NCBI GenBank assembly: GCA_029856155.1
Contig: JAHQWL010000023.1
Span: 64,001-128,000 of the forward strand
DNA length: 64,000 nt
Origin: Promethearchaeia archaeon
Lineage (GTDB): Archaea > Asgardarchaeota > Lokiarchaeia > Sigyniarchaeales > SOKP01
Reading direction: 5' to 3'
A program made the translations under genes and the position numbers. The notes under the pieces are model-generated. The model searched no databases and was not told the DNA's origin. It was given only the letters and a program-made list of their open reading frames with translations. Position 1 is the first letter of the stretch, and every line of letters starts with the position of its first letter. Below, piece by piece: positions 4,388-20,801 of the stretch.

Positions 4388-4569
4388 CTATAGGATTCAT
4401 AATAAAAAATAAAGGAAATCTTAATGATGTTGTCAAACGTTTAAGAGAAAAATTAATTAAATTGAAAGATATGTTATTGTTTGATATTTCAAGAAAGAAA
4501 GCTAGAAAGAGGCACAAAATTATACTATACTTTTATAAACAAATAAAACTTGAAGCAGATTTAGATTAA
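4388..4569 (+). pseudogene. Orphan diverged copy of the 3' end of the HD gene (2040-2212)
   Basis: Translates IGFIIKNKGNLNDVVKRLREKLIKLKDMLLFDIS..., colinear with IGFTVKNKGNIDDIIKHLEEKIIKLKDKLFLDIS...; no 5' part. Confidence 0.85.
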
Positions 4570-4701
4570 AAAAGGAATTAAAAATTAATCTTATTTTTTA
4601 AAAAAAATAATTTTTTTAATTATTAATTGCTATTTTTATCAAAGTATGAAAAAATTATAAAATAATATTAACATCGAATTGAAAGTTCAGTAAAAATAGA
4701 A

Positions 4702-6675
4702 ATGACTCATTTTAAAACTTATCCTTTTACTGCTATTGTAGGACAAGATCTTATGAAGCTTGCACTTATTCTAAACGCAATAAATCCAAAAATTGGTGGG
4801 CTCTTAATAAAAGGGACAAAAGGAACTGCAAAATCGACCACTGTAAGAGCTTTGGCAGATCTACTTCCTGAAATAAATATTATTAAAGATTGTCCATTTA
4901 ATTGTAACCCACACGATCTAAAAGAATCATGTCATGAATGTCAACATAAAATAATCGACAGAAAGTTGAAGAATAATGATATAGAATTTCGCAAAATGCG
5001 TGTTATTAATTTGCCTATAAATGCTACTGAGGATAGAGTAGTAGGGACGATTAACATTAAAAAGGCATTAGAACAGGGATTGAAAGCTTTAGAACCAGGG
5101 ATATTGGCAGAAGCAAATAGAAATATACTCTATATAGATGAAGTGAACCTACTTGCTGATAATGTAGCAGATGTATTATTGGATAGTGCAGCAATGGGAA
5201 TTAATATTATTGAACGAGAAGGTATTAGTATTCATCACCCTTCTAATTTTATCTTGGTGGGAACGATGAATCCTGAGGAAGGAAATTTGAGACCTCAGCT
5301 TTTGGATCGATTTGGATTAAGTGTAGAGGCAAAACCTATTTTAGATATCAATGAACGAGTTAAAATTATAAAATACGTTGAAGATTATCATATTGATCCT
5401 CATAAATTTCACGATAAGTTTGAAACTGAACAAAAATTATTAAGAGAGAAGATTGTTAAGGCTCGTGAAATTCTTAATAAAGTTAAAATTTCAGATGAAC
5501 AACTAGAAAACATTGCAAAATTATCTATTAAACTGGAAATTGATAGTCACCGCGCAGATATTGCTATAAATATAACAGCAAAAACTATTGCTGCTTTTCA
5601 TGGAAGAACAAACGTTTTAGATGAAGATATAAAAATAGCAGCAAGATTGGCATTAGCACATCGTTTAAGAAAACTTCCATTTGAAGAACAAAAAATAGAT
5701 GAAGATGATATCGAAAAGATGTTTGAAGAACAAGATAAGGAAGAAGCACAGAAACTGAATATAAATAATTCAGAACATCGAAATAATAAAGAAATTATAA
5801 ATCTAAAAGAGGAAATTTTCGGCATAGATACTAAGATATCTACAGATGGAATATTAGAAAAAAAAAGAATTGTAAAAGATATGAACACTTCTGGTCAAAG
5901 AATACTACACCCTACTCGTGATAAGAAGGGGAAATATATTGGTGGTCAAAAACCCAAAGATTTTAATTTTAGATCATCTTCGGATATTGCTGTTCTTGAA
6001 ACTATTAACAACGCCGCTTTAGAACCTGAAAATAGAAATGCTTTTAAAAATGGAGCAAAATTAGAGATTAAAAATGAACATATTCATATTAAGAAAAGAA
6101 TTGGAAAATCAAGCCATCTATTTGTTTTCTGTGTTGACACTTCGGGATCGATGGGAGCAAATGACAGAATGATAGCCGTTAAAGGAGTAATATTTTCTAT
6201 CCTTCAATCTAATTATGTATATCGCGATAAAGTCTCATTAGTTGTTTTTCGTGGAGAAGATGCAGAAGTTATTTTACCTCCCACTCGAAGTATTGATTTA
6301 GCATATAAATTGTTAAAGGAAATACCTACAGGAGGTACAACACCACTAATTAAAGGTTTAGTAAAAGCATTAGATATTGCTCTTGAAGAGAAAAGAAAGA
6401 AAACAGGATATATACCCTTGATCATTCTCATTTCTGATGCTAGAGGAAATGTATTTTATAAGGATGCTATAGACGATTTATTAAAAACTGGTAAAGAAAT
6501 TTCTAAAAATCTGATTGATATGATTATTATTGATACAGAAGGCTCGGATGTCAAATTAGAAATCAATAAAAAATTATCTGAATCAACAAATGCGAAATAT
6601 TATCATATTGATACCATGAATAAAGAAAAGGTGAATAAAATTCTGGGAATGGAAGGATTATTTGAAAATATCTAA
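4702..6675 (+). CDS. Magnesium/cobalt chelatase AAA+ subunit with C-terminal vWA domain (ChlI/ChlD-type)
   Basis: [18 protein letters not shown] Walker [25 protein letters not shown]; vWA DTSGSM and TGGTTPL. Confidence 0.92.
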
Positions 6676-10507: not shown

Positions 10508-11419
10508 TTATACTAAATGATGAAATTCTTCAGCATTAATAATGACTTCTTTTAAAATTTGAAAGTTTTTATCCTCTCCATGAATTAAAAATATCTTATT
10601 TTTGATTGGAATTGCTGCTTCTTTTCCGATTAAAACCCATTCTTCTTTAGTTAAATTTCTAACTATTGAACCTTCTTTAAATTTAATATAAACTAATGCT
10701 CCTAAAAAACCATTAAATTTAGTTTCTTCAAGTTTCACATCTTCAAAGTCGGGAATTTCATTATTTTTACCTTCATTTTTAATCTCATATTCAGTCTTAC
10801 TCAATAGCAAGTTCAAATTAGCTTGAATTAAATTATTATCATTCTCTATATTTCTTTTATGATTATACTCGAAAATGATGAGACCACATTCCTGTGTAAA
10901 TGTTCCTTTATGACCTATCAGTTCATAATCATATACTATTCGACCTAAAGATTCTGAATGTTCGATAACTTCTGATTTAACTTTCCACCTCTTTGAAATA
11001 AGAGGTTCTATGTATTTTTGAGAACCAGGATGAATAGTATCAATCGTTAACTCTTTTTTTTCTTGATATAGTTTATCTAGAGTATCGCCAATATACAACC
11101 TCTTTTGTTTTAGTTTCTCAATCTTTACTTCCAAATTATCTACTATTTCATTAAAAATTTCCAATGGGGGTTTAGCTATAAATTTCATCCTTCGAGGTTG
11201 TTTCCTTATTTCTAAAATCTCAATCCAACCTTTATCACTTAGTTTTTCTAATATTCCATATAATGTTGTACGTGCAATTTGAAGATTATATTTTAATCTT
11301 CCTACCATATCACCATTATGCCCTCTTTCAACTAGTGCTAAATAGACTGTAGCTTCGTCAGCAGTTAAACCAAAATCTTGTAAATCTTGAATATATATTT
11401 CTTTTTCCTTATCTTTCAT
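10508..11419 (-). CDS. TrmB-type HTH transcriptional regulator with uncharacterised C-terminal domain; paralogue of the C-terminal two-thirds of 17913-19163
   Basis: LQDFGLTADEATVYLALV...IARTTLYGILEKLSDKGWI...FIAKPP; shares CGLIIFEYN and IPDxEDxKxExTK with the 17913 protein. Confidence 0.85.
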   Translation of the reverse strand: MKDKEKEIYIQDLQDFGLTADEATVYLALVERGHNGDMVGRLKYNLQIARTTLYGILEKLSDKGWIEILEIRKQPRRMKFIAKPPLEIFNEIVDNLEVKIEKLKQKRLYIGDTLDKLYQEKKELTIDTIHPGSQKYIEPLISKRWKVKSEVIEHSESLGRIVYDYELIGHKGTFTQECGLIIFEYNHKRNIENDNNLIQANLNLLLSKTEYEIKNEGKNNEIPDFEDVKLEETKFNGFLGALVYIKFKEGSIVRNLTKEEWVLIGKEAAIPIKNKIFLIHGEDKNFQILKEVIINAEEFHHLV

Positions 11420-11461: not shown

Positions 11462-11493
11462 TATATAAATATGTTGTCGAGATAGGACGACAA
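11462..11493 (-). promoter_or_regulatory. TATA box (TTTATATA on - strand) with adjacent TTGTCG-N8-CGACAA palindrome
   Basis: tatataaa at 11462-11469; TTGTC at 11474 and GACAA at 11489; lies between divergent regulator and methyltransferase genes. Confidence 0.65.
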
Positions 11494-17279: not shown

Positions 17280-17822
17280 TTATTCTATTTTTTTATATTT
17301 AAAAATAATACCTTCTTCAATCCAACTCCAATGTAACATTGGTCGTCTAAATTCTCCTTCAAATTCAAAACTAGATTTTTTTATCTGTTCTTGGACTTTA
17401 TTTAATTCAATTCCATAAGAACCTATATGAGTAGCATGATAAGATAAAAATCCGGATTTATCTTTTAAAACTCGATGTATTTCATTTAATAATTTGATTC
17501 TATCGTCTTTATCGAGTAAATGATACACATCATACATTAACACAACGTCTATAAAATTGTTCTTCAATGGAATCGATATTTTTTTCGAAGTCTTTATGAT
17601 TTCGATATTCTTAATATTTTGAGACTTAATTTCAATAGATAATTCCTCTAAATGATCTTCATCGTAATCAAGAGCATAAATTTTACCAGTATTTCCTATA
17701 ATTCGCGAAGCAATTATTGAATATACTCCTGTTCCACATCCAAAATCTAAGATTTTTTGTCCACTTTTAATTCCAAATTCTCTAAGTATACTTTCTCCCT
17801 TTGAATTTAACCATTCTTCCAT
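17280..17822 (-). CDS. Class I SAM-dependent methyltransferase
   Basis: ILDFGCGTG, YALD, EIHRVLK. Confidence 0.9.
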   Translation of the reverse strand: MEEWLNSKGESILREFGIKSGQKILDFGCGTGVYSIIASRIIGNTGKIYALDYDEDHLEELSIEIKSQNIKNIEIIKTSKKISIPLKNNFIDVVLMYDVYHLLDKDDRIKLLNEIHRVLKDKSGFLSYHATHIGSYGIELNKVQEQIKKSSFEFEGEFRRPMLHWSWIEEGIIFKYKKIE

Positions 17823-17912: not shown

Positions 17913-19163
17913 TTAAAGTTTTAAGATAATACTCAATAATATTGGAAATTGTTCTTCAGAACCCCAAACGACATAGATTTTATTTTGAATAGGAACAGCT
18001 ACATGCCTAGCCGCCACAATCCAATCCAACCCAACATTATTTCCAGTCTCGGTTTCTTCTTTAAATTTAAAATACATTGTCATTCCTAAATAATCTTGAA
18101 TTTTTGTATCCTCAATTTTAATATCTTCTAGATCTGGAATCGTAAATTCTTTAATATCAAGATCAGGTTGTATCGGTTCTCTCATTTTTTCTGAAGAAAG
18201 CTGTAATGCTGCTCTGATGATAACTTCTTCCTTTATTTTTTTATTATATTCAAAAATAATGAGACCACAATCCTTTTCTTTTCCTACTATTCCAAGGGAG
18301 TTAAAGTCAAATGATTTTTCGCTATATAATTGAAAATCTTTCTTTATTTCTGAGATATCTATCCATCCATTCTCAAGAGTTTCACCCATTATATATCGAA
18401 AACTCTTTAAAATCTTTAATTCCTCTTCTTTTTGTTGAATTCTTTCATCAAATATGCTTGTTAAGGGTCTTGCTACAAAATATTGTGCACTTTTTGGCAA
18501 TAATGGCAATTTAATTATCCATTCTTTACTAATTAAGCGATCAATAATACGATATATAGTTGTTCTTTTAATAGATAAATCTTCATCTAACTCACCTACT
18601 TTTGCCCCTTCATTCCCCTTTCTTAGCAATGTTAAATATACTTTTGCTTCTTCAATACTCAATCCAAATTTAAGTAATCCAAGTTCTTGCAAATTATTAG
18701 TATCATCAAGAAGTATTCTTGGAGTAGCCCATTTTAATTCTTCTACTTTTCCTAATTGGGTATCTAAATCCATATATGGCTTTTTTGTACTTAATTCACT
18801 TAAAGTTCGAGATGCTTCCATCATTCCAAGTCGCATCAATCCATCAGGAGCAATCTTACAAATAATTTTCCTCTCATCGTCTTTAAACCCTAAAATTCCT
18901 CCTTTTTTAATAGGATCTATCCCTACCAATCTTTCAGGAGTACACTGAATTATTAAATATTTTATATCTGAAATTGTAAGAGAAGTATGTTTCATTGATT
19001 TCCAAACTGAATTAATTTCATTAATATCACCACTAATATTCCAATTCTTTGTTGAATATTCTATTTCGTTTTCTCCTTTAATTATTGCTGCTGATATTGT
19101 TTTCGATTCAGACTTTATTAAATTCTTTAGAGCATGCTTTACTTTTTCCATATGTAGAATCAT
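17913..19163 (-). CDS. Profilin-like domain fused to TrmB-type HTH and uncharacterised C-terminal domain
   Basis: aa ~5-135 match the lokiarchaeal profilin pattern as I recall it (SAAII...YSTKNWNIS...W...KYLIIQCTPERLV...GGILGFKDDERKIICKIAPDG...MEASRTLSELSTKKPY); aa ~160-250 FGLSIEEAKVYLTLL...IKRTTIYRIIDRLISKEWI...FVARP is TrmB-like. Confidence 0.8.
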   Translation of the reverse strand: MILHMEKVKHALKNLIKSESKTISAAIIKGENEIEYSTKNWNISGDINEINSVWKSMKHTSLTISDIKYLIIQCTPERLVGIDPIKKGGILGFKDDERKIICKIAPDGLMRLGMMEASRTLSELSTKKPYMDLDTQLGKVEELKWATPRILLDDTNNLQELGLLKFGLSIEEAKVYLTLLRKGNEGAKVGELDEDLSIKRTTIYRIIDRLISKEWIIKLPLLPKSAQYFVARPLTSIFDERIQQKEEELKILKSFRYIMGETLENGWIDISEIKKDFQLYSEKSFDFNSLGIVGKEKDCGLIIFEYNKKIKEEVIIRAALQLSSEKMREPIQPDLDIKEFTIPDLEDIKIEDTKIQDYLGMTMYFKFKEETETGNNVGLDWIVAARHVAVPIQNKIYVVWGSEEQFPILLSIILKL

Positions 19164-19199
19164 TATCTCTTTTTATGTATATTAAAAAAAAAATAAAAA

Positions 19200-19403
19200 T
19201 TATTTTTCTCCAAATTTCTTTTTTATTTCATCTAATACTTTATCATAATAGCTTTTTTCTTTAGATTCTTGAATTTTTGTGAAATATTCCGGCATGATTA
19301 GTCTCTTAGATTCATTTTTTATCTCCTCATCTGTCCAAATTATCCCATCATCCAATATGATACAAGGTATACCATCCAAAAGTTTTATTCGTATCATTTT
19401 CAT
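19200..19403 (-). CDS. Small hypothetical protein (about 67 aa) between actin and the profilin-TrmB gene
   Basis: Track ORF 19200-19493 overlaps the actin 3' end; ATG at 19403 avoids the overlap (MKMIRIKLLDGIPCIILDDGIIW...YYDKVLDEIKKKFGEK). Confidence 0.65.
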   Translation of the reverse strand: MKMIRIKLLDGIPCIILDDGIIWTDEEIKNESKRLIMPEYFTKIQESKEKSYYDKVLDEIKKKFGEK

Positions 19404-19432: not shown

Positions 19433-20578
19433 TTAAAAGCATCGATGGATAACTTGGGGTCCCATCTCCTTGTATTCTCTTCGAGTAATCCACATTCTAT
19501 GAAATGTTTTTAAGGAACTTAAGATAGATCCTCCTATCCACACAGAATACATTCTTTCTGGAGGAGCGATTATCTTTACATCTATAGATTCAGCAACCTG
19601 TTCTTTTATTTCTCGAGTTAAACGCTCTTTAATTCCGGGAAACATTGTAGAACCGCCTGAAAGGACAATATTACTATAAAGATCTCTGCGTAAATCTACA
19701 TCACATTCAGATATTGCTCCTACCACTTCATCATCTAGAGGAGCTAATTCTTTACCAATCACAGAAGGATTAAATAAGCATTCTGGAGCCAAGAATCTTT
19801 CAATCCCTATTGTGATAGTTTCACCATCAGGAAGCATGAAATTCTTTGCCATACCAGCTACCTTATTTGAAAGTAAAATCTCTTTTTCAGGATCAATAGC
19901 AACATAGCAAAGCTTTTCTTTTATTTCTCTTACAATCTCTTTCTCAGCTGATGTATAAAAGGAATATCCATTTTGACGTAACAATCTCTGTAAATATGTT
20001 GTAACATCCCTTCCAGCAAGATCAATTCTCTGGATTGCATGACTTAAAGCAAATCCTTCAAATATTGGTACTATATGAGCTACTCCATCACCAATATCGA
20101 TTACACATCCTGTTGTTCGACCAGAAGCGTAAAGTGATAATACTGCTTGAGTTGCTATATAAAGCGCCGGAACATTAAATGTTTCGAACATTATTTCTGC
20201 TAGTTTTTCTCGATTTGATCGAGGATTCAATGGAGCTTCAGTTAATAATATTGGGTACTCAGATGGATCAATTCTTAAATCAGTATAAAATGTATAATGC
20301 CAAATTCTTTCCATTGCTGGCCAATCTTCCACAACTCCATGCTCAATAGGAAATTGTAAATTCATTATTCCTTTTAATTCCATCGCTTCTTCACCAATAT
20401 ACCATTCTCGACTATAATCCTTTACATCGGGCATTATGTTTCCATATTTTGGTTTACCAATCACAGTAGGAAACACTGAACGTGGCTGATCTTCTCCTCC
20501 AAATCCATTTTTTGATATTCCGGTCCCATTATCTATAACAATAGCTCTATTATTTCTAAAATCCCCGTTGACTGAAAT
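19433..20578 (-). CDS. Actin (Lokiactin-like), 381 aa with proposed ATT start
   Basis: Frame upstream of the track start encodes AIVIDNGTGISKNGFGGEDQPRSV; also FPIEHG, LLTEAPLNP, QAVLSLYASGRTTG, DIGDG, IKEKLCYVA, LPDG, NIVLSGGSTMFPG, APPER, WIGGSIL, C-terminal HRCF. Confidence 0.97.
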   Translation of the reverse strand: MSVNGDFRNNRAIVIDNGTGISKNGFGGEDQPRSVFPTVIGKPKYGNIMPDVKDYSREWYIGEEAMELKGIMNLQFPIEHGVVEDWPAMERIWHYTFYTDLRIDPSEYPILLTEAPLNPRSNREKLAEIMFETFNVPALYIATQAVLSLYASGRTTGCVIDIGDGVAHIVPIFEGFALSHAIQRIDLAGRDVTTYLQRLLRQNGYSFYTSAEKEIVREIKEKLCYVAIDPEKEILLSNKVAGMAKNFMLPDGETITIGIERFLAPECLFNPSVIGKELAPLDDEVVGAISECDVDLRRDLYSNIVLSGGSTMFPGIKERLTREIKEQVAESIDVKIIAPPERMYSVWIGGSILSSLKTFHRMWITRREYKEMGPQVIHRCF

Positions 20579-20767
20579 TTTAAAACCACCTCTTTTTTTG
20601 ATTATAAGAACTGAATTTTATTAAAGGAATCAATAATTAAATAGATAGTAGACTATTTTTCTTGGAAGATATTCCCAGAAATGATCTAATGTTGATTATC
20701 CATAGAATTCATATTTGATTCCTAAATTTAATAAAACTTTTTCTTGTTGTAATGATATTTTAACTAG

Positions 20768-20801
20768 TATATAAACTTTGTCACATCATCGTGACAAAGT
20801 T
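20768..20801 (-). promoter_or_regulatory. Actin-operon TATA box with abutting perfect 11-bp inverted repeat
   Basis: AACTTTGTCAC-atcatc-GTGACAAAGTT at 20774-20801; tatataaa (TTTATATA on -) at 20768-20775. Confidence 0.75.

Follow-up and report, generated by a model that had tools for sequence, protein, structure and literature searches.

A stretch of 64,000 nucleotides from a Promethearchaeia archaeon (Asgardarchaeota; Lokiarchaeia; Sigyniarchaeales; assembly GCA_029856155.1, contig JAHQWL010000023.1, positions 64,001 to 128,000 of the forward strand; hereafter the window) encodes a 416-residue protein (17913-19163, minus strand) in which a profilin domain, the archetypal binder of actin monomers, is joined to a TrmB-type DNA-binding regulator. 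The gene appears to belong to a cassette of four parts, namely an operator-like palindrome, an extra lokiactin gene, a gene for a 67-residue protein, and the regulator itself. The identities of both domains, the conservation of the fusion and of the gene order, and the presence of a unique palindrome that co-occurs with the fusion are established. The strongest context of the regulator, absent from a first-pass annotation of the window, is the adjacent actin gene with its promoter palindrome, and the reading that best unites these observations, with a probability of about 0.4, is that the protein is a local transcription factor that senses monomeric actin and acts on the spare actin gene.

The component families (Asgard profilin and TrmB/TrmBL2) are known, and their combination and placement are new to the searched literature, in which neither a profilin-TrmB fusion nor a regulator next to lokiactin was found to be described (a 2023 BioEssays paper on Asgard profilin interactions fell outside its coverage).

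Domain structure of the regulator

The open reading frame lies on the minus strand at exactly the coordinates given by the first-pass annotation and contains no internal stop. The motifs cited there as a lokiarchaeal profilin pattern are all present: YSTKNWNIS (residues 36-44), KYLIIQCTPERLV (68-80), GGILGFKDDERKI (88-100), PDG (106-108) and SRTLSELSTK (118-127). Because most orthologues are 412 residues long and begin with MEK, translation may in fact begin at the second ATG (19151) and not at the annotated one.

Residues 1-128 (18780..19163, minus strand) are a true profilin domain. In a phmmer comparison of residues 1-150 with PDB sequences, the best match was LokiProfilin2 (5zzb, E = 1.9e-8), followed by LokiProfilin1 (5yed/5yee, 3.6e-8), OdinProfilin (5zza, 5.8e-7) and 7pbh (5e-5); the resemblance is not due to chance, because Asgard profilins stood alone at the top, with no other notable match. 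An AlphaFold model of the regulator, built from 45 homologues, has a mean predicted local distance difference test score (pLDDT) of 72.7, with values of 77-88 over residues 11-120. In the profilin fold, helices from the two ends of the chain lie against one face of a beta sheet. The modelled head consists of a helix (5-17), two strands (22-29, 33-37), a second helix (44-56), five strands (61-64, 67-74, 78-82, 89-94, 98-104) and a final helix (110-123), which is the order of elements in profilins, including at residues 44-82 the short helix and three strands that replace the central helix of roadblock domains. This replacement is the actin-binding adaptation of the profilin type (PMC10933270). 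Foldseek ranked LokiProfilin1, LokiProfilin2 and OdinProfilin first (E of about 2e-8, probability 1.0), ahead of about 35 eukaryotic profilins, and VIA aligned the head to LokiProfilin2 with a Z score of 16.6 (124 residues, root-mean-square deviation 2.6), as compared with 12.6 (104 residues) for the best roadblock domain, 9jq8 of MK-D1. The first-pass annotation had named an unrelated roadblock, GAF or PAS domain as the alternative; phmmer, Foldseek and VIA all placed profilins first, and none of these three domain types was the best match in the structure searches. In some orthologues (P0048 and P0067, 462-474 residues) about 50 additional residues, many of them charged, are inserted into the profilin domain directly behind the second of its helices.

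The profilin domain is followed by a tail and linker (residues 129-153; 18705..18779, minus strand), delimited by conservation within the family as P-Y-M..L-G-K....K-W-x-T-P, in which P129, Y130, L137, G138, K139 and W145 vary little or not at all among orthologues. The tail has a low pLDDT in the model of the monomer. A PY..LG tail is found also in two profilin paralogues described below (L059 and L060).

Residues 152-416 are a TrmBL2-like winged-helix regulator. The frame runs directly from the profilin domain into the TrmB-like helix-turn-helix, as had been claimed, the Pfam family PF01978 matching residues 163-219 (E = 1e-10, 41.6 bits against a cut-off of 25.6). The winged helix-turn-helix and a long helix (residues 154-259; 18387..18704) are followed by a variable segment of low confidence (residues 260-296; 18276..18386; pLDDT below 50 in both models) and by a C-terminal alpha/beta domain (residues 297-416; 17913..18275), all on the minus strand, so that the regulator has the layout of TrmB and TrmBL2: winged helix, then long helix and C-terminal domain. 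When residues 152-416 were modelled alone (pLDDT 73.7), TrmBL2 chains were the eight best Foldseek matches (about 300 aligned columns, E from 1.8e-4); TrmBL2 (5bpd) was the best VIA match as well for the winged helix and long helix, with a Z score of 12.5 over residues 154-258, and of 12.2 in the separate model. The C-terminal domain is common to a profilin-less paralogue, and its likeness to TrmBL2 comes from the whole-length alignment, not from the domain taken separately. The recognition helix, K-R-T-T-I-Y-R-I-I here and K-R-T-T/H-I-Y-R-I in the family, is nearly invariant down to 36% overall identity and includes an invariant tyrosine (Y204), such a residue being expected in the recognition helix of TrmB regulators. 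No sugar-binding domain was detected, helix-turn-helix families being the only Pfam matches to residues 150-416 at E values up to 1; the best structural match, TrmBL2, is a protein without such a domain (PMC4158304).

Reality and distribution of the fusion

In NCBI, JGI, ENA and Logan assemblies a search recovered 149 homologues, with about 99% coverage and 47-92% identity for the sequences of similar length; none of the 149 carries a profilin annotation. Species-representative genomes supplied 49 further loci, with identities down to 36%. The first-pass annotation had allowed that the fusion might be an assembly artefact, but the same frame recurs in homologues from four independent sources, and the joining of two separate genes by assembly or gene calling is ruled out with near certainty by the uninterrupted frame in 149 homologues and 49 genomes at 36-92% identity. 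In a scan of 400 Asgard genomes, the full-length fusion was present in about 44 of the 135 genomes of the window's own GTDB family (four genera) and in none of the 265 genomes of other families, the sole long-frame match outside the family (G128) being a profilin-methyltransferase fusion instead.

The view that profilins are normally small stand-alone proteins needs a qualification: profilin domains are not always stand-alone in this lineage, and the same genome also encodes a profilin-methyltransferase fusion and two proteins in which profilin is followed by a helical tail.

The linked actin gene

Wherever a locus includes sufficient DNA on that side, the fusion has an actin gene immediately upstream of it on the same strand. 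In the window this gene (19433..20578, minus strand; Pfam Actin, E = 2e-118) encodes an extra lokiactin paralogue of 381 residues, and between it and the regulator lies the gene of the conserved 67-residue protein (19200..19403, minus strand), which has an N-terminal strand of the IKIIDGIPCI type and a C-terminal amphipathic helix and has no Pfam match. A small protein of about 65 residues occupies this place in at least 20 of the 45 loci of the family alignment, the most distant included; other cassettes have lost its gene and have a gap of 35-80 nucleotides between actin and regulator. A methyltransferase gene downstream (17280-17822) was considered as a member of the cassette and rejected, being kept only in about ten close relatives.

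A second, housekeeping lokiactin, 85% identical to the linked actin, is located on contig C4. Two actin copies are likewise found in other fusion-bearing genomes, and one copy in ten complete fusion-less relatives. In a quick maximum-likelihood tree (identical sequences and the redundant loci L002, L003, L005, L008, L027, L034 and L058 being left out), the housekeeping actins form one very tight clade (Shimodaira-Hasegawa-like approximate likelihood ratio test support 99) and the linked actins occupy much longer branches, the deep branching of linked versus housekeeping copies not being resolved by this quick version. By comparison of sequences, the linked actin is a second, faster-evolving lokiactin paralogue and not the housekeeping one. 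Some Lokiarchaeia-like species retain such an additional actin, probably under a regulation of its own. At 37 positions the most common residue of the linked actins is not that of the housekeeping actins, mostly within residues 10-91 (window about 20306-20551), which correspond to subdomains 1-2 and the D-loop region. None of the 37 falls in the predicted profilin-binding face, a distribution that suggests altered filament contacts instead of altered profilin binding.

The linked actin gene has no ATG, GTG or TTG ahead of the codons for the phosphate-binding loop, and probably starts at an ATT (20578-20576) located 7-8 nucleotides behind a GAGGTGG ribosome-binding site. Of 48 related loci, 23 have ATT at the start position and nine others have ATG or TTG; that so many species retain a weak start codon is a hint that translation of the linked actin is controlled.

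A candidate operator at the actin promoter

Upstream of the linked actin gene is a perfect palindrome, ACTTTGTCAC-N6-GTGACAAAGT (20775..20800), the core of which (TGTCAC-N6-GTGACA, 20779-20796) is followed after 3 nucleotides by the putative TATA box of the actin promoter (TTTATATA here, TTTAAATA in most relatives; 20768..20775, minus strand). Here and in many other loci the palindrome is about 200-220 nucleotides before the actin start (leader at window 20579-20767), and in the closest relatives (L009-L013) only about 85 nucleotides before it, so that there are two classes of leader length; a leader of about 200 nucleotides seems long for an archaeal gene. A scan for bacterial-type promoters and terminators gave 19 promoter-like sites, compared with 18.9 expected from shuffled sequences, and is uninformative for an archaeon.

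At up to one mismatch, TGTCAC-N6-GTGACA occurs only once in the whole 4.1-Mb genome, at the actin promoter. Among 43 non-redundant fusion loci the palindrome is exact in 28 and within two mismatches in 40, counts that overstate statistical independence because the fusion genomes are related, and it is nearly always 3-4 nucleotides ahead of TTTAAATA. None of 1112 control windows of 400 nucleotides contained it with one mismatch or fewer, and three did with two mismatches. All ten complete fusion-less relatives lack it upstream of actin, where only background matches with 4-5 mismatches were found. Most loci have a single palindrome and a few have two. In one clade the sequence is TGTCGC..GCGACA, both half-sites having been altered together, as expected of a site bound by a dimer; the recognition helix is the same in both groups and shows no link with the CGC variant. 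The palindrome resembles the TrmBL1/Tgr site, TATCAC-N5-GTGATA (PMC4158304), with near-identical half-sites (T-G/A-TCAC). From these sequence comparisons, it is quite probable that the regulator binds the palindrome.

A conceivable competitor for the site is the profilin-less TrmB paralogue (303 residues; 10508..11419, minus strand), which is 34% identical to the regulator over residues 163-414 and has a palindrome of its own, TTGTCG-N8-CGACAA (11474..11493), in its promoter. The paralogue is present in 22 of the 135 family genomes, and in 19 of the 22 loci (L096-L117) TTGTC-N10-GACAA is found about 75 nucleotides upstream of it, mostly just downstream of a ATATTTAAA box. The paralogue thus probably regulates its own gene, and because sites of TrmBL1/Tgr upstream of the TATA box confer activation and sites downstream confer repression (PMC4158304), its location suggests, by analogy, that the paralogue represses it. 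The similar recognition helix, the related palindrome and the frequent location of the paralogue within 1-5 kb of the fusion lend something to an improbable explanation in which the fusion protein is mainly cytoskeletal, a dimeric profilin acting on the dynamics of the spare actin with its TrmB part as a dimerisation scaffold, and another regulator such as the paralogue occupies the palindrome. A recognition helix almost invariant down to 36% identity argues instead for retained DNA binding by the fusion protein; many genomes with the fusion have no paralogue (22 of 135 genomes versus about 44 of 135); and the actin palindrome follows the fusion, not the paralogue, because two fusion-less genomes (G147 and G161) that carry the paralogue have no palindrome at actin.

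The type II plasmid partition system ParMRC is composed of a DNA site (parC), an actin-like ATPase (ParM) and a protein that is both adaptor and autorepressor (ParR). The cassette has the same order of promoter DNA site, actin-family gene and gene for a DNA-binding protein, and it could by this resemblance be more than a feedback circuit, namely a device of eukaryote-type parts that positions DNA, in which the palindrome would be a centromere-like anchor, the extra actin a filament motor, and the profilin-TrmB dimer an adaptor that couples the DNA site to the barbed ends of spare-actin filaments or to their supply of monomers. The uniqueness of the DNA site in the genome, the accessory, fast-evolving and patchily distributed nature of the actin, and the predicted placement of profilin on its barbed face are all compatible with such a device. 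It is nonetheless very improbable, since the site consists of one 18-bp palindrome (in a few loci, of two) and not of a repeat array, has the location of an ordinary archaeal operator, right at the TATA box, and belongs to a cassette in a chromosomal neighbourhood; moreover, the adaptor would be a winged-helix TrmB protein with a profilin domain instead of the ribbon-helix-helix ParR, and the actin is eukaryote-like.

Predicted binding of actin

Residues 1-160 of the regulator, co-folded with the neighbouring actin, gave an interaction prediction score from aligned errors (ipSAE) of 0.78 (0.77-0.79 in three runs), the best of three controls scoring 0.00; in a benchmark of the mark used for this score, 58 of 80 solved complexes reached it, as did 2 of 110 mismatched pairs. 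The runs agreed in at least 74% of contacts, and the partners had a pLDDT of at least 78. On actin, the predicted footprint (residues 131-135, 173-181, 293-296 and 358-381) coincides with the canonical site for profilin at the barbed face, formed by subdomains 1 and 3, and that on the regulator comprises the three-strand insert, the C-terminal helix of the profilin domain and the conserved tail (129-139), the lowest expected error being that of Y130 against actin residues 369-374. Binding of actin by the head appears fairly likely. On the actin side, the predicted interface shows no difference (36 of 36 residues the same) between the linked and housekeeping actins of the genome, and the head, if it binds actin, could read the whole monomer pool, consisting of both actins.

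Proposed control of the linked actin gene

According to the proposed mechanism, the regulator would be a one-component transcription factor, with the profilin domain as its sensor and a TrmBL2-like winged-helix dimer as its output. The dimer would bind TGTCAC-N6-GTGACA next to the TATA box of the extra actin gene, and this gene is probably the first of a transcript that contains the regulator's own gene. The profilin head and the PY..LGK tail would bind monomeric actin at its barbed face, and occupancy by actin would alter the action of the regulator, whether DNA-bound or free, at the promoter, so that expression of the spare actin, and probably of the regulator itself, would track the size of the unpolymerised actin pool. 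We infer each of the three steps, namely that this protein and no other binds the palindrome, that actin is bound by its head, and that the one binding influences the other; given both bindings, coupling is to be expected with good probability.

By the positional rule already cited for TrmBL1/Tgr, the location of the site upstream of the actin TATA box suggests activation. If the regulator is an activator, binding of actin would most simply sequester or inactivate it, in the manner of MRTF-SRF. Alternatively, a protein bound only 3 nucleotides from the TATA box could block transcription factor B and repress the gene, with actin as a co-repressor.

Several considerations weigh against the proposal. 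The protein that binds the palindrome is identified by co-occurrence among related, non-independent genomes. Co-transcription of the regulator with actin is uncertain, because most cassettes have a run of 7-15 T just ahead of the regulator gene (here within window 19164-19199), which could act as an archaeal oligo-T terminator and reduce the transcription arriving from actin, or could belong to a promoter of the regulator gene itself. With respect to the sensor, the Pfam Profilin model (PF00235) gave the head 15.1 bits (E = 0.026), under its gathering cut-off of 25 bits; canonical profilins of the same genome score 25.1, 16.0 and 18.3 bits, the model being weak on Asgard profilins generally. 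The high score of the predicted complex may recall the solved Loki and Odin profilin-actin complexes, and so signify likeness and not binding. Finally, conservation of the actin-contacting residues, which the first-pass annotation had proposed as a check, did not give the expected signal: within the head, the predicted contact residues show the same degree of conservation as the other residues (mean entropy 1.67 versus 1.67, p = 0.5), only Q73, D95 and the tail standing out.

This lack of preferential conservation is one of the attractions of a rather unlikely alternative, that the protein is a dedicated local regulator of the extra actin operon whose head does not report actin. The head might then have another partner, such as a proline-rich protein, a lipid or a small GTPase, or might serve as an assembly aid, like related roadblock domains. 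The core fold is common to profilin and roadblock domains, and the best roadblock match scores not much lower (Z of 12.6 against 16.6); the head profile also matches domains in Ras GTPases, leucine-rich repeat proteins and other winged-helix proteins, so that the fold is used in many settings; and the evidence of the operator supports regulation of actin and is silent as to input. Four observations favour an actin-sensing head over this alternative: the sequence likeness is specifically to actin-binding Asgard profilins, the short helix and three strands of the profilin type are present at residues 44-82, the predicted complex is at the canonical site on actin with all controls at 0.00, and the gene consistently adjoins actin.

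Other profilin-domain proteins

Profilin domains are joined to other partners in the same genome (G000). On contig C2 (about 4540-5850; L059:1447-2757), a profilin domain that is 46% identical to the head of the regulator and likewise ends in a PY..LGK tail shares its polypeptide with a leucine carboxyl methyltransferase domain (PF04072, E = 2e-31), and a like fusion is found in another family (L118:1950-3212). It may be speculated that the profilin-methyltransferase is an enzyme that could be aimed at actin, profilin binding near the actin C-terminus. Contigs C34 (L060:1480-2112) and C21 (L061:1153-1815) encode proteins of about 210-220 residues, in which a linker of low complexity connects profilin to a helical module that is conserved and forms the C-terminus. 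The genome scan had matches in 120 of 134 family genomes, mostly partial matches covering the profilin region in frames of about 200-240 residues.

The profile of the head matched only 176 clusters among 1.84 billion representatives, many of them multidomain. Profilin-like domains are C-terminal to Ras (P0154, P0164, P0205 and P0209), to leucine-rich repeats (P0208, P0222, P0262 and P0267) and to several winged helices (P0225, P0248 and P0268); some of the weaker matches may be roadblock-type domains. The Asgard profilin domain is by these examples a reusable module, probably for the targeting of actin, fused in turn to a regulator, a carboxyl methyltransferase and a helical tail.

Comparison with known systems

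The stand-alone Asgard profilins (Loki profilin-1 and profilin-2, Odin, Thor and Heimdall; 5yed/5yee, 5zzb, 5zza, 7pbh and 6yrr) are homologous in sequence to the head of the regulator and have the same fold and the same predicted footprint. Here, unlike in those proteins, profilin is the N-terminal module of a 416-residue DNA-binding protein, in which binding of actin is predicted, and the regulator has a conserved tail of about 25 residues (PY..LGK..KW.TP) that canonical profilins lack.

With the TrmB family (TrmBL2, 5bpd; TrmBL1/Tgr) the regulator shares the PF01978 winged helix, the long helix, the C-terminal domain and a palindromic candidate operator. It differs in that its input would be a profilin head, no sugar-binding domain having been detected, and in that its candidate regulon is a single promoter, instead of a global regulon of sugar metabolism or binding throughout the chromatin.

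In eukaryotes, the RPEL motifs of MRTF-A (MAL) bind G-actin, and MRTF-A together with SRF controls the transcription of actin and other cytoskeletal genes. The logic proposed here would be alike, a regulator binding monomeric actin and the expression of actin tracking the unpolymerised pool. There is no homology between the two systems, and RPEL motifs are not among the Pfam matches of the regulator at E values up to 1; a single polypeptide contains both its sensor and its DNA-binding domain, and it has no nucleus to shuttle into. The archaeal system is small and defined, with one operator, one protein and one ligand, and could be rebuilt from purified components without culturing. If the proposal is true, it would be the first feedback from cytoskeleton to gene in a prokaryote, a transcription factor that reads the pool of actin monomers through profilin, and a functional parallel to MRTF-SRF reached with different parts.

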